A stretch of 36,625 bases of DNA from Catajapyx aquilonaris (taxonomy: Eukaryota). Position numbers and translations under genes: made by a program. Numbering within the stretch: the stretch's first letter is position 1; the number at the start of each line of letters is the position of its first letter. This document shows positions 2,895 to 33,709 of the stretch, piece by piece. The notes beneath the pieces were generated by a model. The model saw nothing but the letters and a program-made list of their open reading frames with translations, had not been told where the DNA came from and made no database searches. Where the stretch lies: contig JYFJ02003895.1 of NCBI GenBank assembly GCA_000934665.2, positions 1 to 36,625 on the forward strand. The letters run 5' to 3'.

Positions 2895-3113
2895 GGGCCG
2901 AATTCAGAGAGGTTGCTTAACGTAAACGCGCCCGATTAAATCCTTTAGTCATCCTCGATTAGCAAATTTAACCAACCTGCTAATACAAAGACGGCGATTA
3001 GCGCTAAACGCCCCCTAATCGCACTTTCTAGCACTTTTAAATTTGCTAATCCAGGATGACTAAAGGATTTAATCGGGCGCGTTTACGTTAAGCAACCTCT
3101 CTGAATTCGGCCG
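2895..3113. mobile_element. 219-bp palindromic MITE, possibly PIF/Harbinger-like
   Basis: 76-bp inverted arms 2896-2971 and 3037-3112 with 1 mismatch; the interior also pairs partly. ATG lies on both sides (2892-2894, 3114-3116) as a candidate 3-bp TSD. The GGGCC terminus suggests Harbinger, but the superfamily is uncertain. Confidence 0.85.
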
Positions 3114-18856: not shown

Positions 18857-19291
18857 CTGAAGGCCACACGCCCATGGACTTGCTGCACTGAATGTCGCAA
18901 TCGTCCAGGTCTAGCAATTCCAAGTTTGGAATCAGGGTTGCGACAGCCACCATGATCTTATCTACCCAAGCAGACGACATGTCGTCTGCTTGGGTAGATA
19001 AGATCATGGTGGCTGTCAGATGGAACAAACTGTCGCGACAGTTTGTTCCATCTGACCAGTCGTACCCGTTTCAGTTTATTCATGGGCGCGATCACCTGCT
19101 TGGCCCTCTGTGCAGATACAAACTGCCCGTCTAATTTCACTTCCTTCCAGAGCGATACATGCATGACCATCTCTCTCCAATTATGGCATACAAGGGCTGC
19201 ACTTTTCAACAGATCGGTTTGTGGCAAATAGGCAAACACTAGAAGGAGTACCTCATTAGGGGATCCGAGGTACCTGACCAACCGCATCAGC
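18857..19291 (-). pseudogene. F-box/LRR-type exon disrupted by a 61-bp palindromic insertion
   Basis: PNEVLLLVFAYLPQTDLLKSAALVCHNWREMVMHVSLWKEVKL (F-box) and LIPNLELLDLDDCDI (LRR). Acceptor TGTTTCAG at 19292; donor CAG|GTGAGT at 18857/18856. Confidence 0.85.
18942..19056. repeat. Two abutting perfect palindromes (76 bp at 18942-19017; 42 bp at 19015-19056)
   Basis: Checked base by base. Neither has a spacer, they overlap by GTC, and CGACA is duplicated at 18975-18979 and 19036-19040. Confidence 0.97.
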
Positions 19292-21461: not shown

Positions 21462-23390
21462 TGACCCATTGCTGTTGGTTATTTATCAATGCTTCATCTG
21501 TTCCCTACTGATGAGTGATGACTTACCAGGGAATAATCCAGTACATTTTCCAATTGATGCCTGCAAGTCCGTGATCACCCACAGGATTCAACTTTAGCCG
21601 TACTGCAACATGCACCTATTTTGACACTTATTAGAACTTGCCAGTAAGTGCCCATCAACTGAAATCAATAAAATTGCTGAAAGTACTTTGTTGGGTTTCG
21701 AGTGGATTGACTATCTGGATTACTATTAATATTAATATATATTAATATATTTTAAAAGTTAATAAGATAAGTAAAAAAGTGATTGTCATTGAAATGCAAT
21801 TGTAATAATTATTGACTGTGCCCTGCACATATTACTGCTAGTAATTGAACTAGTCTCAGGAAAATAGGCACCTAGTGGGACAGGATAAGCCCGAGTGATT
21901 ATAGGAAGTCACTTGTATATCTGGTTTTATTTGCTGCTGTGGTAACAGGGAATAAGAAGAAGGGGAAGGATGAAAGGGATAGGAAGAGGGAGAGGCCACC
22001 CAAGGATATTCTCCCTGGGGTGAGGCCCCGACCAGTTCCCGGGTGGTTTGTCCCCGGAAAAAGGCCCCGAGAGGAACTGGACGGGAGCTTAAATAGACGT
22101 CCAGCCGCAATGCATGGTGGTTATAGTGCAGGTCACTCCACAAAAGGGAAGGTGGCAATTATCGGCTGGAGGGCATACAAGCGGAAAAAAGGAAATATGG
22201 CGTAACAAGGTAACGCAAGTCTGATGGGAATTGGTTTGACCGGGTCGAGGTCACACACTACGGACAAATGCTGTCACACTAGCAAGTTGCGAAAAGAAGG
22301 AAGAACAGGTGGACTAATTAACTGGGTAAATCTGACAACAGGGCTAGTAATTTCAATATATTTGATAATAAGGGCATACAAGGGAGGTAAGTAGTGGGGG
22401 AAGGAGGACCGGGTCGTCCGACTCGCCACCCTCGTCCAAGTGTGCAAGGGGCGAGCGAAAGGAATCATCCGAGTCCTCCTTTATACTGTAATACACACCG
22501 GAGGTAGTCGCAAGCCGGTCCGAAGTAGTCCATCTAAGATGAAGCACCTTGGATTCGATATGACTACTTTTTCCTCTCCGTCCTGTTAGAAGGCTGTCGT
22601 TGAATGTTTTTGAATACAGGATGGCAGAAATAGTACATTCAGTAGTCATATATAGCTCTTGGTTTCACCACGTATAATGGACCAAGTAGAAAAAAACATG
22701 CAAATATTTGAATTGGTCCTCCCCTGATGCACTTTCAATTAATTCTGCAGTATTTCACTGCTCTTGCGAGAGAATAATTTTCTAGCAGGTTTTTGAAAAT
22801 CTTGCAGGTGTCAGGTGGAAAGGAAGGCTTCCCAGACCTTAAGCTCAGCCAGTCTCAAGCTGCAACAGTCTTTAAGTTTTGTATTAGTGACATGGGTAAT
22901 GCACATTGTCGTGTGTCAAAATATTGAACTTACTTGGCACATTATTATGAACAAATGAATGGATATTTTGACTATCGGGGAAAATGCTTAGTTGCTCTCC
23001 CTGTGAATTAGCCTGTGAATCTAGCAGCTTCCAGTATATTGTATTATTATAATTATTTTAATGAATAAATGAATATTGTTCCTATGCATGTGGACGATAA
23101 TTTGCCAAGATCTGAAGTGTATATTTCCATGGTGACTCCGTTAGGTCTAAAGTGAGTGTAAATGGGTATGAAATAGGTCAAATAGGTATGAAATAGGTGC
23201 ACTGTGCCATTGCATTGGGTTATGCCATGGGTTACCAATCTTACCATCCCCTCCCTCTCTAGCTCCCCTGTACCTGGACAAACTTTCCCTTTATATGTGG
23301 AAGATGAATGGAGACAGGAGGTTGTATGATGTATTTTTTTTAGTTCCGAAGTTTCAATATACAGTGTCAAGTAACCAAACGTCTTTCTAC
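21462..23390. repeat. Segmental duplication copy A (copy B at 25434-26882)
   Basis: High-identity direct repeat starting TGACCCATTGCTGTTGG. Copy A carries an extra 403-bp solo LTR and an extra 59 bp at 22672-22730. Confidence 0.95.
21876..22278 (-). mobile_element. Solo LTR (403 bp), Gypsy-type 4-bp TSD
   Basis: TGGGACAG...CTGTCACA termini; CTAG TSD at 21872-21875 and 22279-22282; empty site CAC-CTAG-CAAG at ~25838-25848. Minus-strand TATTTAA (~22089-22095) and AATAAA (21926-21931) give the orientation. Confidence 0.9.
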
Positions 23391-23869
23391 GAAAGTCTGT
23401 GCGAAGGGTTGCTTCAAGACCAGGATAAAGTGGCCAAATGTATTTGAACCCTATGGTACATATTAATAAAATTATCACGCGGGTTGTATGCAGTGTTGCA
23501 CGTAATGAGTGTCTCAAACATGAAGCTGATGTATTATGTTGCTTGATAATTTGGTAATGTATTGGACAACCATTTAAAATGTTAACTTAATGCTTTCAAG
23601 GAACGTTATCCTTAATTCGTATTCATTTGAAGAAAGTGTGCTTTATCACGAATTTTGGACGCATGATTTGCTAACTGATTGCGGCTTTGATTTCGACGAT
23701 TTCTATTGATACTTACACGTCGCTTTCCAAGATCTGCGCTGCATTTTTTTCCAACAAGTTACAGCCCACCGGAGCACTTATACATGATACTGTATAACAA
23801 TACATATTGTCTGTCAAGTCGCGATCTGTGGATTGTGTGCACACTGGTTTTGTTTTTACGTGGTGTGCA

Positions 23870-24008
23870 CGCAAGGAACTCAAATCCAAAGAGCACGATT
23901 CAAGAGAATTTACGTTAGAGAAATTACTTTTTATATTTTAAAATGAAACGAACTGACAAATATGAGCCAAATATGTTCTGAAAAAGAGTCAAATGTACAT
24001 TTAATGCA
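23870..24008. repeat. Dispersed paralogous block; second copy at ~5250-5390
   Basis: Shared AGAATTTACGTTAGAGAAATTAC...TATATTTTAAAATGAA...ATGTACATTTAATGCAA. Confidence 0.85.
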
Positions 24009-24009
24009 A

Positions 24010-25433
24010 ATCCCGGCTGACCGGTAGCTCTGCACGAAACCAGACCTCGTCTTTGGGAAATATCTCCCCCAGTCGCAGGTGGATGTATCTGAGGAGAAGG
24101 TTCGAGACCATTGACACCTCGTCTATAATGAGCCGCTTCAGATCCCTGAAGTAGGACCGCATCACCTGCACCGCGTCTTCCGAAAGTGGCCTGTAGGCTG
24201 CTGTGGATCCGTGCTCTACGGGAAGCTGGAGGAGTTTATGGATGGTCACCCCGCCCACGTTAAATGCGGCCAGTCCGGTAGGGGCTGTCACGGCCACAAC
24301 GATGTTCTCCGACGGGAACATGTCCATTATCATGACCTTGACCGGGTGGATGAGGAAGCTCTTCCCCGTTCCTCCACAGCCGCTAACAAACATCCGGAGC
24401 GGATCTGCTGACGCCAGCTTTATGCGGACAAACACTCGAGACTGGTCGGCGTTGAGGCGCAACACCATATCCTCGAGATTGCTCGTCACGGGGTCAGGTC
24501 TCATGGCTGCTACCAAGTCCTCCATGGCTTGGACAGCTGCCGTCTCCACCTCGGCCCCCTGAGCAAACCCTTCTCCAGACTGAGCATCTGGTCCTGCCTC
24601 GTTGTTCTGCGTGGTCGCCTCCAAGTTCTCCATCAGCTCCTCCTCTGCCTCCCTGATGGCTGTCAGCTTCTCATGATAGACATGTAGAGCCTGCATCTTC
24701 GGTAGGAGTGCCGAAAATGCTGACTGGTAGGTGGAGTGGTCCTGAAGAAACTCACTCTCCACGCGCCACGGGTAGAACAGGAAGAGTATGGCGAAGTAAT
24801 ACTGCTCCCTCTCGGTGTCCTTTGAAGGGTTGAACAAGCGGTGGTTGATCAGGTGAAGCTTGCTGCGCAGCCGCACAAACCCCTTTCCCTTCATAAGTAC
24901 CACGAGTCCCTCCGTGTTCTTTGCCGACTTGACATAGTCGTGAAGTCGCATGAAATCAAAGAGGCAGAGGTTTTCCATAGACAGCGGGCGATTAGGATAG
25001 TAATCATCTACCCAGCTGTTTTCATAGATGCCTCGTGACTCCGGAATCTTCTCCCGAATGGTCTCGATGGCAGCCAATGTCTTTAAGCCCCGCGTTCGCA
25101 CGTGGGACATGTGCACGTTGACGTGTTTCACGGAGGCCGTCTTGCCGTATAGGTGGACGCCGATGAGCCGCCTCGCTGCTTCATAGGCTCCGTACTCGCG
25201 GTTTGTCAAGACGCGCATGGCAAATTTCCAGAGGCGCTTGCAAAGGGTCTCGGAGTTGGCAATGTCGTCCCAAACATCTGACAGGACGGTCTTCTCTCCC
25301 TTGGTTATATACTTAGTCACGCAGTGACAAAGGGAGTTCTGGCTGTCGGCGATATGCTGCAAATCCATGTTTGCCTCCCACAGCAGCAGAACAGTCGGAT
25401 TATAATCGTTGATGCGCTCCTCTCCACGACCCC
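24010..25433 (-). mobile_element. Helentron/Helitron2-type RepHel internal fragment (end of Rep, linker, N-half of PIF1 helicase)
   Basis: Open frame 24001-25461: INDYNPTVLLLWEANMDLQ...KYITKGE, LFYPWR, Walker A SGCGGTGKS, APTGLAAFNVGGVTIH, Walker B LIIDEVSMV. It is truncated at both ends and GC-richer than its flanks. Confidence 0.92.
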
Positions 25434-25757
25434 TGACCCATTGCTGTTGGTTATTTATCAATGCTTCATCTGTTCCCTACTGATGAGTGATGACTTACAA
25501 GGGAATAATCCAGTACATTTTCCAATTGATGCTTGCAATGTCCGTGATCACCCACAATATTCAACTTTAGCCGTACTGCAACATGCACCCATTTTGACAC
25601 TTATTAGAGCTTGCCAGTATGTTGCCCATCAACTGAAATCACTGAAATCGATAAAATTGCTGAAAGTACTTTGTTGGGTTTAGAGTGGATTGACTATCTG
25701 TATTAATATTAATATATATTAATGTATTTTAAAAGTTAATAAGTAAAAAGGTGATTG

Positions 25758-26357
25758 TCATTGAAATGCAATTGGAAATATTGACTGTGCCCTGCACATA
25801 TTACTGCTAGTAACTGGACTTGTTTCAGGAAAATAGACACCTAGCAAGTTGCGAAAAGAAGGAAGAACAGGTGGACTAATTAACTGGGTAAATCTGACAA
25901 CAGGGCTAGTAATTTCAATATATTTGGTGATAAGGTCATACAAGGGAGGTAGTAGTGGGGGAAGGAGGACCTGGTCGTCCGACTCGCCACTCTCGTCCAA
26001 GTGTTCAAGGGGCGAGCGAAAGGTATCATCCGAGTCCTCCTTTATACTGTAATACACACCGGAGGTAGTCGCAAGGCGGTCTGAAGTAGTCCATCTAAGA
26101 TGAAGCACCTTGGATTCGATATGACTACTTTTTCCTCTCCGTCCTGTTAGAAGGCTGTCGTTGAATGTTTTTGAATACAGGATGGCAGAAATAGTACATT
26201 CAGTCGTCATAGCTCTTGGTTTCACCACACTTTCAATTAATTCTGCAGTATTCCACTGCTCTTTGCGAGATAATAATTTTCTAGCAGGTTTTTGAAAATC
26301 TTGCAGGTGTCCGGTGGAAAGGAAGGCTTCCCAGACCTTAAGCTCTGGCAGTTTCAA
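25758..26357 (-). CDS. 199-aa open frame of unknown function in duplication copy B (probable exon remnant)
   Basis: Open in copy B, disrupted in copy A. More distant homologous DNA lies at ~17780-18000 and ~14360-14460. No domain recognised. Confidence 0.3.
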   Translation of the reverse strand: MKLPELKVWEAFLSTGHLQDFQKPARKLLSRKEQWNTAELIESVVKPRAMTTECTISAILYSKTFNDSLLTGRRGKSSHIESKVLHLRWTTSDRLATTSGVYYSIKEDSDDTFRSPLEHLDESGESDDQVLLPPLLPPLYDLITKYIEITSPVVRFTQLISPPVLPSFRNLLGVYFPETSPVTSSNMCRAQSIFPIAFQ

Positions 26358-28419
26358 GCTGCAACAGTCTTAAGTTTTGTATTAGTGACATGGGTAATGC
26401 ACATTGTCGTGTGGCAAAATATTGAACTTACTTGGCACATTATTATGAACAAATTAATGGATATTTTGACTATCGGGGAAAATGCTTAGTTGCTCTCCCT
26501 GTGAATTGGCCTGTGAATCTAGCAGCTTCCAGTATATTGTATTATTATAATAATTTTAATGAATAAATGAATATTGTTCCTATGCATGTGGACGATAATT
26601 TGCCAAGATCTGAAGTGTATATTTCCATGGTAACTCCGTTAGGTCTAAAGTGAGTGTAAATGGGTATGAAATAGATGCACTGTGCCATTGCATTGGGTTA
26701 TACCATGGGTTACCAATCTTACCATCCCCTCCCTCTCTAGCTCCCCTGTACCTGGACAAACTTTCCCTTTATATGTGGAAGATGAATGGAGACAGGAGGT
26801 TGTATGATGTATTTTTTTAGTTCCGAAGTTTCAATCAAAGAGATTCAATATACAGTGTGAAGTAACTAAACGTCTTTCTACGAGCTGGGATAGTTTGATC
26901 AAATATTTTTCTAACTACGTCTGTTTGAGTAATAAATCTCCTCCACCGTGGAACTCTATGCCGGCGGGCTATTGGCAGGGTACTCAAGACGGAAATGTCA
27001 TTTTCGAGTTGGGTGGGCAGAGAAGAAATCTCTTCCAGGACAGTTATTTCTTGTGACTGCTTCATTTTAGTGGAAACTGTTTACTGGTAACATAATGTAT
27101 GATAACGAAGTGAATCGTAGTTTTCTTCCATATCTGCGTGTGTATTCAGTTTCACAAAATTCCACATGTGAAATTCATTCGCCTTGCTCCGATTAAGGGA
27201 ACACTAAATATCACCAAAAACACTTCATTAAATTCATGCTGTTGCATAGATTTTATAAAAATGATTGTTTTAATAAGTTGTGCCGATTCAAAACAATCTA
27301 CCACACGTGCGGGGCATTTCCACTTACAATATCTTAATCATCTTGTATCAGGAAAATATTGTTTTTGTATGTTTGCCCCATGCCTCTGCTTCCCATTTAC
27401 CTCGATACACATTTGTCATATTGTGATCTAATCACCTTCTATGTCATGGATCATATCTCTTGCGTGATTGTGCAGTTAAAAATAATATGTCGGGTGAGTA
27501 GCGCCTATCCACAGGAGGCAATATGATATAATAATTATATAATGCGTATCCATACTTATGTTGTAAGTAGGGAGCGATTTCCATTTTTGACTTTCCAGTC
27601 CCATATTGTTATGTATGGATGGCATTTTCCAGAATGCTCCTGTTTGTTTGTGTCGAGACATGTTTCCACTTCTTAGTCCTCGGGCTTTTCTTCTTGGTCA
27701 AATGGCTGTTCCTCGCCTTCTGTTTCTTTCTGATGTGGTCTTTCATTGCTTTCAGGTCAGGTTGCCCTTAATGTGACTTGAGGTCATGGTACGCATTGAA
27801 TCTATTTGGAATGAGTGCGTCATCTTTCTCCCGCCGAGATTTCCATTTACGCGATAGAAAAACATGTTCTTCACATCAGATCAGCGAAAGTCATGTAGGT
27901 ATCAGGTGCCACTGAAGGTTTTTTAATATTAACACAATGGAAAGCCAGTCTTAAGATTTGTAAATGTGGCGTGAATAATGTCAGTTATCATATGACAAAT
28001 AGTATATTAATGTTAATTGGCATATACTTGTGTGTGAGTGAATACTTGTGGGCTGTAGTTTACTGTCTACTGAGCACAATTTTACGATTAAAATTGGCAC
28101 AAGGTTACTAACTAGTGACAAATCCAATTTTGTTGAATCATGTTTGAAGCATCAGTACGGATGATTATGATGAATGCGGATGAAGTCAGTGTCGCGATGT
28201 ACGGCATCATGTTCACATTCACAACCTCCTCCATCACTGAAGCAAGGCGCTTCGCATTTTTGCAATAGTCATATTAATGGGACAACAATTTCATTTTATA
28301 GCCTTACATTATTTTGAACAAATGAAATGGCTCTATTTATACTATCAGGATCTTTTTGGTGGTTCCATACACCTACCTGTGAGCCTACTGTGTGAAAGGA
28401 CCCATATCAAAGGGAATGT

Positions 28420-30323: not shown

Positions 30324-31465
30324 TAGACCAGGAGTGCATGATCTTGAGAAAAATAATACTTATGGAGCTGAAAATTGGCAGGCAGGTCCCAAGATGGTCC
30401 TGCACAACTTAATAAATGTCGCCAAAGTTCCATGTGTTGTATGCGAGAAAGACGTCGTCATTTTTGCCGCATTTGTGTCGTAGGCCCAAATGCGACAGTA
30501 GAAATGTGACTCATAGGTTGAAATATTCAACAAAATCCTATTTATTTATTGCTTTTTTGCATGCAGGATGGGAGTAATAAGTGCTAACGCTACATCAGCT
30601 TTGTGCAGTTATGTATTATTTCTGCGTTGAGACCTATAGAGACAGAAAGGAAGGCAAGGTTAAACATTCCTTTATTAAAGCAAAGAGTACTGTCTTATTA
30701 GACTTACTCCGGATCGTCTGCTTCCTCCATTTCATAACCTGCAGCGCCATTTAAGCAGCTTCTGCCCTTGCAGTAGATGCACATCATGGAGCAAGCGAGA
30801 CCCGTAGTCTTGCAGGAGCATCGTGATCCGCAGTCGTTCTTGCTACCGCAAGATATCATATGCAGGAGCTCGTCTGGGGCAGGTGACAAATGAGTCGTGA
30901 CAGGAACCAACATATCACCACATTTCTTCCATCCCCAAGCCTCAGGAGAGATAGAATTTCCAATCCATTCTTGGACCTGGAAGAAAAGATGACATAACTA
31001 TTACGTGAGATGAGCGACGCGCAAAATTATGCCCCAAGTATTGAAATGGAAATACGCCTACCTGCAGGTAAGTTCTCAATGAATGCTGTTCACATGCGGC
31101 ACTTGTTGGTGGAAGCGTCGCCAGATCAAAAGCTGCAGTGACAGCTTGCCTGGCAAGAGTGCGAGCATGTATTCTGTCGCGGAGTTCGTGTAATAAGCTG
31201 GAGAAGACATCACTGCTGTACAGATTCATCAGGAATTTCTCTCCGGCAGCAAGTATATCTGCTTTCGCCGCTGACGAATTGTTGAAAACAGCGACCAAGT
31301 CCAGCATCTCAGGCTTCTCCAGAAGCTTGAAGGCCTTCTTCTTGCCCTTGCCGAAAATAGCCGACGTGGTGTCACACCCTGTGACGGCATGGGCAAACAA
31401 CAAGCAGTCCTTCGTGGAGCCCAACTGTTCCTGGATGTCTCTGACTGTGAACAATTTTTTTTCGG
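30324..31465 (-). mobile_element. AcademX-type transposon 3' part (XPG-like nuclease plus Cys-rich finger, one intron, putative terminus)
   Basis: FAHAVTGCDTTSAIFGKGK...LPPTSAACEQHSLRTYLQ; an 85-bp GT-AG intron at 30977-31061 splices in frame to VQEWIG...WGW...APDELLHMISCGSKNDCGSRCSCKTTGLACSMMCIYC (stop at 30704). The TAG-starting terminus at 30324 is tentative. Confidence 0.8.
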
Positions 31466-32627
31466 CCCAGACCTACGGAGAAATTCCCACTTGGTGGCAA
31501 GTAAACCACCACCAGAGTGAACTCCCGGCCCACGCCAGCCACCCGGAAGACCCCGGTGTAGCGAGTGCACAGGGCTGTCTCCCGTGCAATCCGGAGACCG
31601 GAATGGAAGACCTCCAACGCCACCTTCGAACTGCCGGTGGCCCAAGTGCGGGCGGCCAGCCTGCTCCGTAGGGAGAGCACGTAGGGCTCCAGAAAGCACA
31701 GGATGTCCAGTCTCGTGTCCACCGCCCAATCCATGGCACGACCCGTAGCCTCCTGCCCCCCACCGGCGTTGTACTGCCCGATTCGGAGAGGTCTGACCTT
31801 AGCAGCCATCTCCGTTCCTCCTCCGGATCACCGCCATCCTCTGCTGCCAAACGGGGCACCGGGCCGCCCACACCGAGTGACCACTAGGCCATCCCTGCGC
31901 CTTACAGTGGACGCAGCCCACCACCGTCGACCGACACGTCTGGGCCTCGTGTCCGTTCTCCCCGCATCGACCACATCGCGGTTCACGCTGACATTTGCGG
32001 GGTCCCTGAGCCGAATGACCATAGGCACAACACCTGAAGCATCTGTCGCTTCGAACAATCTCCTCCACGATGCAGTCGTTGAGGTCGACCTGCAGTCGCC
32101 CCTCCTTCATCAGGTCCGGGTAGAACCCCGCCGACACCTCCAAGGTCCAATTTTCACGTGTAGGATTTTGGCATCCCCGGTTCGTTATCACCTTAACGTG
32201 GTCCCGAACAGACCGGCCCTGAAAGAGCTCGCTGTTGTCCTCTCCGATAATGTCCAACAGCTGCTCTGCCGTGAAACCCACGCGCACCCCAGTCAATCGG
32301 ACCCTCGGAGGAGCCCTCGTAACCGTCCTCGACATCGCCACACCCGGCTGATGTTGAAATGCAGCCACCACCGCCTCCCTCTGCTGCGGGGTCCTGCATG
32401 CGATGCGCACACGCTTCCCCACCTTGGTCACAACCCGAAAGCCACCCTTCCGCACCGCCTCAGGGACGACCAATTTGATCGTCTGGGAAATCTCAGGATC
32501 TGGCACCTCCTCCACGAAATCGACCACCGCAGGGAACGACGGCTCCGCCCGCGGCAGGGACGGAAAGGCCCGAGCCACGTCGGCGAAGGACGGTCCCACC
32601 CCCGGACCGGACACCTGGCGCTCCAAG
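31466..32627 (-). mobile_element. R1-clade LINE: ORF1 with three zinc knuckles plus start of ORF2 AP endonuclease
   Basis: ORF1 (to 31799) contains CFRCCAYGH...C, CGRCGENGHEAQTC and CVHC...GH...CP. ORF2 from 31809 reads LRIGQYN...LDILCFLEPY...VVVYLPPS. It is cut by the LTR at 32628 and by the Academ junction. Confidence 0.9.
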
Positions 32628-33709
32628 TGTGCTGATAGACCCCTAGGAGCCCTTGGGCGGCCCTCTTGAGACCCCCTTGAGTTAGGCACGTCCTGAGTCT
32701 AACAGAATTACTTATTGACTGGTTACTATAACAATGCCAGTTGACCTGTCTCAGGTGAGCCAACTGGCTAACAATACATCTCCCTTTTCTGGTTTGTTAT
32801 CAAATTATACATAAACATTATACGCCGTCTTGTCCTGGCAGCTGGCCGTCTTTAGTGGACTCGGGAGGCTGTCCAGCTCCGTCACTTCCATACGGAAGTA
32901 GATGGCGCCGGTTGACTCGTACAATGGAGCCGTTGTCGAGTTCACACCAATAAGACCGTGGGAACTCCGTCTTCTGCTTCACTATCGCTGGAGTCCTCGC
33001 ATCTGACACCCATACTCTGGTTCCGTCTTCCAGCACCGGTAGCTCCTTCACGCGGTGACGGCGGTCATGGCTTGCCTTCTGCTTCTCCCTCCATCCAATT
33101 GGAGCCTTTCCGACAGAGATTTGTCCCGCAATCCAACAACAATACGGTCACAAATAAGTTCATCCCTCAATCCTGCAAACTCACAATGTTCTGCCAACCC
33201 GTGTAGTGCCGTGACAAAGCCTTCCACATCTTCCCCTGGCTGCTGGACTCTGGTATTAAATTTTGCACGCTCGTACGTTCGATTCTTCTTGATTACAAAA
33301 TGTTTTTCAAAGCACAACAACACATTGTCGTAGTTGCTCATGGCAACGTCATCCAAATGGAACGTAATACGTAGTTCCTGCCTGAGGCCCCATCGAGTAT
33401 ATGAGGGCACTCACCTGCTCGGCCGCTGGCTTCCTGTCAAGTTTCGACAGTGTTCTGTACCTCTGGAATCTCATCTTCCACATAGGCCATCCTTCTGGAC
33501 GTTGGAAGTCCAGAGGTTCTGGAGGTCGAAATCCCAAGCTTGCCATATCCAAACTTGTGCAATAGTTGACTCTCCAACTACGGTAGGGGTAGAACTTCTC
33601 ACCCGGCTGCCACCATGTGCTGATAGACCCCTAGGAGCACTTGGGCGGCCCTCTTGAGACCCCCTTGAGTTAGGCACGTACTGAGTCTAACCCTGGTCTA
33701 ACAGAATTA
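32628..33709 (-). mobile_element. Internally deleted Mag-clade Gypsy LTR retrotransposon
   Basis: 3' LTR 32628-32778 (151 bp, TG...CA), PPT AGAAAAGGGAGA 32779-32790, truncated 5' LTR 33616-33709, PBS TGGTGGCAGC 33606-33615 (tRNA-Leu-like). gag WPMWKMRF...YERAKFNTRVQQPGE...DRIVVG is joined at ~33092 to the pol C-terminus HDRRHRVKELP...PRSY...RVNRRHL. Confidence 0.92.

Follow-up and report, generated by a model that had tools for sequence, protein, structure and literature searches.

A double palindrome occupies positions 18942-19056 of a 36,625-nt stretch of the genome of Catajapyx aquilonaris (assembly GCA_000934665.2, contig JYFJ02003895.1, positions 1 to 36,625 of the forward strand; hereafter the window), where it interrupts an exon encoding an F-box. 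It is very probably the scar of a Transib transposon that was excised in the germline, leaving hairpins on the host DNA that were opened far from their tips and joined through microhomology. This interpretation is based on (i) the anatomy of the structure, (ii) a gain of 61 bp relative to paralogous exons, (iii) resident Transib elements whose target-site duplications (TSDs) are 5 bp long and have the consensus CGNCG, and (iv) 12 scars of the same anatomy, including that of the window, built on this motif. From these observations we infer the former presence of the element, the positions of the nicks and the nature of the host enzymes. Statements on published work refer to the available parts of the cited sources.

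Anatomy of the double palindrome and state of the F-box exon

The structure has the order L, rc(L), rc(R), R, in which L (38 nt) and R (21 nt) are the outer arms and rc denotes a reverse complement (Table 1). Both pairs of inverted arms are 100% complementary, with loops of 0 nt. The initial annotation, which had described this arrangement with perfect arms of 38 and 21 bp, a GTC overlap and the pentamer CGACA occurring twice, proved exact by coordinates. All 56 inserted nt are accounted for by rc(L) and rc(R), and no transposon end sequence remains. The next-longest zero-loop palindrome of the window has an arm of 10 nt and is AT-simple; DNA folding of the scar gave z = -20, and 0 of 200 shuffles were equally good. 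Since its arms are free of mismatches, the window scar is young.

The exon contains an F-box-like domain (Pfam match, E=3.8e-13), whose frame is pushed by the scar into a stop at 18958-18960 (minus strand). It is 435 nt long as observed and 374 nt without the scar, while the exons of its three paralogs, located on other contigs, comprise 375, 380 and 368 nt. All three paralogs align across the site without the 61 bp. When positions 18980-19040 are removed, the window and the paralog L002 form a single alignment of 429 columns with 77% identity and only a 3-nt gap at the site. The paralogs are collinear without the 61 bp, and this segment therefore represents a gain.

It had been proposed in the initial annotation that deletion of 18980-19040 fuses two open reading frames (ORFs). 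The reading quoted there, RLVRWNKLSSAWVDKIMVAVATLIPNLELLDLDDCDI, was obtained, but the paralog frame was not restored over the whole exon, because of two other frameshifts (+1 near 19258 and -1 at 18870/18871). The exon is thus defective on grounds besides the scar, and it may have been dead already when the scar arose. Among the paralogs, the exons of L157 and L158 are open and that of L155 is broken. With two other frameshifts in the exon, and paralogs with open exons in existence, the locus counts for little in functional terms. When the window was compared with 38 kb surrounding the three paralogs, the F-box exon alone matched and no further exons of the gene were detected. The closest paralog exon, L155 (G000:C751), carries several indels and a stop; the F-box family includes at least two decayed copies of four.

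Table 1. Coordinates of the scar and of the exon in which it lies (window positions)
Feature	Position	Strand	Basis
F-box exon with leucine-rich repeat (LRR)-like stretch, from conserved TTTCAG acceptor to GT donor	18857..19291	-	Pfam on the F-box part only; 'LRR-like' judged by eye
Lack of one base that all three paralogs have, close to the exon's 3' end	18870..18871	-	Alignment
Left arm L, original host DNA, whose 3' end is the first TSD copy	18942..18979	+	Arm match; aligns with paralogs
Left TSD copy CGACA; hairpin tip directly after 18979	18975..18979	+	4/5 positions fit the resident Transib target CGNCG
rc(L), 38 P-type (palindromic) nucleotides, putatively from the left hairpin	18980..19017	+	100% complementary, zero loop; mechanism inferred
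Net gain of 61 bp, of which 56 are inverted and 5 duplicated, compared with the empty site	18980..19040	.	Paralog alignments
GTC microhomology, putatively uniting the two opened hairpins	19015..19017	+	Arms total 38 + 21 nt, the centres lie 56 nt apart; difference 3
rc(R), 21 P-type nucleotides, putatively from the right hairpin	19015..19035	+	Arm match; mechanism inferred
Right arm R, comprising the second TSD copy CGACA (19036-19040) and original host DNA	19036..19056	+	Arm match; paralog alignment
Additional base near 19258 that all three paralogs lack; PRIP is directly followed by TAA TGA when read in the paralog frame	19253..19258	-	Alignment

Resident Transib elements and sister scars

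Transib transposases nick exactly flush, like RAG, and HzTransib itself prefers CGNCG. The family is characterized by 5-bp GC-rich TSDs and CACAATG-like ends (PMC1131882); cleavage proceeds by nicking and hairpin formation on the flank, and the 5-bp GC-rich TSD is described as invariant (PMC4840297, PMC5499845). A 2026 preprint warns that TSD length is variable within Transib (10.64898/2026.08.26.747230), and the available part of PMC4763223 gives no nick offset.

The genome contains both a Transib transposase and CAC-ended elements with 5-bp TSDs, in agreement with the resident hairpin-forming family of this type suggested by the initial annotation. The transposase fragment (L057:613-1191) was located by way of ends resembling the heptamer; it matches HzTransib (structure 6pqn, E=1.3e-59) and adjoins a CACAGTGG end common to 9 places. 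This end has 8 distinct flanks, with exact CGNCG in 4 and at most one mismatch to it in 7. In two other candidate families, defined by their CACAGTGG ends, exact CGNCG adjoins 22 of the 36 ends and the motif with at most one mismatch 30 of the 36 (counted by eye, the five flanking bases being unconstrained); the background of CGNCG is 0.16%. The pattern YGNCR+CACWRTGG..AAAA gave 134 matches vs 13 for its control, the motif being imposed by the pattern. Where both ends of an element were in view, an identical 5-bp TSD was found in two cases out of three, the third showing one central mismatch. The CGNCG target is common to several distinct Transib-like families, and CGACA, duplicated in the window scar, is one base off this consensus.

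Three complete CACAGTG-ended elements of ~1.5, 1.35 and 2.2 kb (L152, L153 and L154; G000:C3280, C4354 and C1754, respectively) are bordered by 5-bp CGNCG duplications. The commonest CACAGTGG family of the heptamer-end search was rejected as a Transib, since its motif lies inside a miniature inverted-repeat transposable element (MITE) bounded by TA. This many-copy MITE (L044, L046, L048, L050 and others) is ~1-1.5 kb long and has GGGGAGAC ends and an internal repeat of the heptamer CACAGTG, which resembles that of recombination signal sequences (RSSs) and can mislead searches for RSSs or Transib.

Scars of the same type were sought with tight patterns of the form X rc(X) N0-60 rc(X) X, in which X was CGACR or CGCCR and the reversed motifs served as controls. 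The CGACR class yielded 8 matches vs 0 for the control and the CGCCR class 4 vs 0, the window scar being one of the 12; the reversed motifs are slightly commoner than the scar motifs and yet gave none. Given the motif backgrounds, the chance of a 12:0 result is ~5e-5 (~1e-4 without the window scar). Every one of the 12 matches has the full double-hairpin anatomy, with long zero-loop arms that cover the insert from both sides, the innermost 5 bp of the palindromes being imposed by the search pattern. Left and right arms measure 38/21, 31/15, 8/8, 18/25, 54/15, 26/22, 34/23, 19/16, 24/17, 27/13, 35/25 and 35/31 nt (range 8-54, median 23.5); 22 of the 24 are at least 13 nt long, and a single scar has less than 35 nt between its centres. 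The joints show an overlap of 0-3 nt in 10 scars and a 16-18-nt filler repeating nearby sequence in the other two (origin of the filler judged by eye). Several sister scars contain 1-3 arm mismatches, which indicates that they have aged in the genome. The tight patterns cover part of the target space, and the 12 scars constitute a floor.

A de novo scan for double palindromes found none in 300 kb taken blind. In ~440 kb from other loci, it recovered 11 of the 12 scars (the 8/8 scar, which lies under the threshold of the scan, was detected separately) and one further structure with a 2-bp duplication, but nothing else. The initial annotation had proposed excision of an element with a 5-bp TSD whose hairpins were opened unusually far from the tip: the 11 further scars on the motif, against 0 for the reversed controls, support the excision, but arms of 38 and 21 nt fall inside the 8-54-nt range of the genome. 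As to the abutting palindromes that it advised seeking, and their duplication lengths, the tight patterns, which impose the motif, gave 12 scars with 5-bp duplications matching the target of the resident Transib, and the de novo scan added the 2-bp case.

The latter, L113:2946-3021 (G000:C140; centres 2971 and 3008), is a zero-loop double palindrome with arms of 26 and 13 nt, a 2-nt overlap and a duplication of CA, located 1.4 kb from a 5-bp scar. It is possibly the scar of a hairpin-forming family with 2-bp TSDs, for instance CACTA/EnSpm. Short tandem CGNCG words spaced by 0-24 nt, which a loose scar pattern retrieved amid many CG-rich repeats, are also in excess (206 vs 97 for the control); instead of being microsatellites, some of these runs may be Transib footprints of short length.

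Mechanism and alternative origins of the scar

According to the mechanism that we favour, a Transib element would have inserted at CGACA in the F-box exon, with gap filling duplicating the 5 bp. The transposase would later have excised the element in the manner of RAG, so that each host end would have been sealed by a covalent hairpin level with the outer TSD edge. These hairpins would have been nicked by host enzymes ~38 and ~21 nt from their tips, rather than at the tips, and the two new ends would have paired via 3 nt (GTC/GAC) and been filled in, which would give the arrangement L, rc(L), rc(R), R found in the germline. As regards the host enzymes, internal nicking and joining of the DNA polymerase theta (Pol theta) type are a guess. 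All 12 scars have a short junction overlap or locally templated filler, as in Pol theta-type joining, and these junction features are suggestive of such a final step, although non-homologous end joining also uses 1-3 nt.

Several observations weigh against this mechanism or weaken its support. Neither an element between two CGACA copies nor an empty allele of the same locus was seen in the one sample that contains the locus. The scar patterns were chosen after the motif was known; they demand that each of the two arms reach at least 5 nt and that the centres lie 10-70 nt apart, and short footprints are invisible to them. The window scar itself is included in the count of 12, and five of these scars had come to light before the tight patterns were applied. 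Looser scar patterns gave no useful excess (163 vs 158 for the control, and 21 vs 31, with one true scar among the 21); their matches are dominated by CG-rich repeats and were used merely to find candidates among the matches listed, of which the loci L159-L162 contained no scar in de novo scans. Finally, the absence of double palindromes from the 300 kb taken blind limits generic events merely to < ~10 per Mb, and the L113 structure indicates that long scars without loops also arise at sites other than 5-bp ones.

The best surviving alternative, which we nevertheless regard as improbable, is generic repair of a staggered break, in which both ends fold back (by snap-back, by synthesis with Pol theta or Pol delta, or by replication template switching) and are joined through microhomology without any transposon. 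Overlaps of 1-3 nt and the two templated fillers are typical of alternative end joining, a double palindrome with a 2-bp duplication occurs too, and breaks in yeast yield fold-back inverted duplications of 5-34 bp (PMC11724301). Such fold-back insertions and small inverted triplications resemble the scars in their short local inverted copies and microhomology junctions (PMC11724301, PMC13334657). However, the described fold-backs need pre-existing inverted microhomology and leave a 41-nt loop (PMC11724301), and the triplications have ~30-bp spacers (PMC13334657); as far as the available text of these sources goes, the events are one-sided or of the DUP/INV/DUP (duplication, inversion, duplication) type, and neither a constant 5-bp duplication nor a motif goes with them. 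The zero loops on both sides therefore distinguish the scar from fold-back synthesis with its loops or spacers of 30-41 nt. All 12 scars, against 0 in the controls, have such zero-loop palindromes at the edge of a 5-bp duplication of the Transib target, and this 12:0 result largely refutes generic repair as an explanation of the cleavage step. For the final joining step, generic repair may hold.

It is likewise improbable, to a slightly greater degree, that the same hairpin excision was carried out by an element other than Transib proper, i.e. a RAG-like (RAGL) element or another family with 5-bp TSDs, flush hairpins and a CG-rich target. The element is gone and its family can no longer be read. 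ProtoRAG likewise generates 5-bp TSDs and favours GC-rich flanks, and its joints involve RAG-type excision with rejoining of the host flanks (PMC8289069); these joints were measured in human cells on plasmids, the scoring being chiefly of deletions, and palindromes are unmentioned in the available part of this source. The elements actually found beside CGNCG, on the other hand, have CACAGTGG ends and a Transib transposase, and a search of the genome with the RAG1 Pfam profile PF12940 gave no match, although this search was insensitive, the controls being equally blank. The hAT superfamily, named as a possible source in the initial annotation, does not fit. Its Ac/Ds elements, whose footprints are described from yeast and plants, also form palindromes of P nucleotides; 85-100% of the joints show microhomology, and the arms measure up to 20 nt in budding yeast, a maximum that the median arm found here exceeds (PMC5873905). 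However, these palindromes are odd-centred, their middle being the complement of the single base next to the element (PMC5873905), and hAT duplications measure 8 bp (PMC1131882), whereas the centres here are even, which sets the scar apart from classical hAT, and the duplication is 5 bp.

A fold-back chimera produced during library preparation or assembly is highly improbable. The locus is contained in all four runs, which derive from one sample, possibly the source of the assembly, so that all support comes from that sample; a run of another sample matched 0.00 of the words, and no RNA run was found to contain the locus. Logan contigs of the four runs tile the structure without a single deviating letter. 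The contig of 57 nt that is specific to the scar (18988-19044) has a depth of 23.3, 25.6, 26.9 and 14.4 in the four runs, with flanks at ~22-39 (0.62-0.84 of the mean flank), and the 57-nt and 42-nt pieces reach 0.55-0.84 of flank depth per copy. The 53-nt contig of the left hairpin has ~0.9-1.2x the flank depth; a homozygous scar would predict 2x, and the value, which fits a heterozygote, may reflect either hairpin dropout or a second allele. The contigs of the four runs contain no empty-allele joint, though contigs drop variants. Against an artefact stand the recovery of scar-only words at depth 14-27 in every run with no competing joint, the arm mismatches of the sister scars, which are unlike a fresh chimera, and the location on a Transib target motif, which an artefact would not pick.

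Abortive insertion, in which the transposase joins the element to its target and the intermediate is resolved by hairpinning without a stable insertion, would centre on the target motif too and agrees with the lack of a filled allele, but hairpins formed before gap filling should, to judge from the 5-nt stagger, hold a 5-nt unpaired centre, while the observed stems contain the whole duplication, which points to excision after completed insertion and makes this the least credible of the alternatives. Re-insertion, in inverted orientation, of a 51-bp circle derived from the same site, formally equivalent, was rejected, as the circle would have to be opened at that very 5-mer in each of the 12 scars.

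Other features of the window and significance of the scars

Besides the scar, the window contains several repeats and remnants of mobile elements. A palindromic MITE-like element of 217 bp (2896-3112) has long terminal inverted repeats with an 84% self-match. A Helitron-like open frame of 491 aa, with a PIF1 helicase domain (E=2.7e-16), is located at 24001-25476 on the minus strand. The segments 21462-23392 and 25434-26883 form a local duplication (90-96% identity), inside which lie two small, AT-simple palindrome clusters (21724-21750 and 25701-25723). GC-rich, retroelement-like debris (31372-33700) includes gag-like and endonuclease-like frames, recognized by eye and without a Pfam match, and a 76-bp direct repeat (32628-32703 and 33616-33691).

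Hairpin footprints are textbook knowledge for hAT elements and V(D)J recombination, hairpins on the flanks are known for Transib, from which the RAG1 core is accepted to derive, and long footprints are known for Tam3 and Ascot-1. The scar resembles the coding joints made by RAG1/2 in its putative flank hairpins, palindromic additions and retention of both flanks at full length, and RAG transposition mostly generates 5-bp TSDs (PMC2193825, PMC1131882). P additions in V(D)J joints are normally 1-2 nt long and in Artemis-deficient cells typically 1-7 nt, with a mean of 3.6 (PMC2193825). In contrast, the arms described here measure 8-54 nt (median 23.5, among arms selected to be at least 5 nt), occur on both sides, and are heritable and flanked by a TSD, and the window scar lies in a germline F-box exon whose context is invertebrate-like. 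Coding joints proper arise in somatic cells, where RAG1/2 act on RSS-flanked receptor segments; the scar is comparable to such a joint in the way it works, but identity as a V(D)J coding joint is not claimed. With Transib as studied in HzTransib (6pqn), the scars would share the nick-hairpin cleavage on the flank, and they share the 5-bp GC-rich TSD, and the transposase and CAC ends are resident in the genome; the published data, in the parts available, come from in vitro or cell assays and concern TSDs of filled sites (PMC4840297, PMC5499845).

The available full-text literature, whose coverage leaves out most subscription papers, yielded no account of donor scars left in nature by Transib in a germline, of the length spectrum of such scars, or of recurrent arms of this length. 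The 12 natural scars display flush, coding-end-like geometry in the germline and provide a first length spectrum of hairpin opening in an invertebrate, with arms roughly ten times the length of V(D)J P nucleotides. Hairpin repair as it was before Artemis-style tip opening thereby becomes testable from sequence alone, and the signature X rc(X)..rc(X) X allows the counting of past excisions that are invisible to the annotation of transposable elements.

We tentatively suggest, as a possibility short of an even chance, that in the germline of this animal most transposase hairpins are opened by nicking at an internal position, ~15-35 nt away from the tip, through an MRN/CtIP-like or another non-Artemis route, followed by microhomology joining. 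The internal route is proposed as the norm because 22 of the 24 arms reach at least 13 nt, where 5 would have sufficed for the search, and because the centres lie less than 35 nt apart in a single one of the 12 scars. If this were true, long double palindromes would be a regular product for several hairpin-forming superfamilies (as in the 5-bp Transib scars and the 2-bp CA scar) and would provide a steady supply of new perfect inverted repeats, and the genome would constitute a fossil record of how breaks made by the ancestor of RAG were repaired without the tip-opening pathway of vertebrates.
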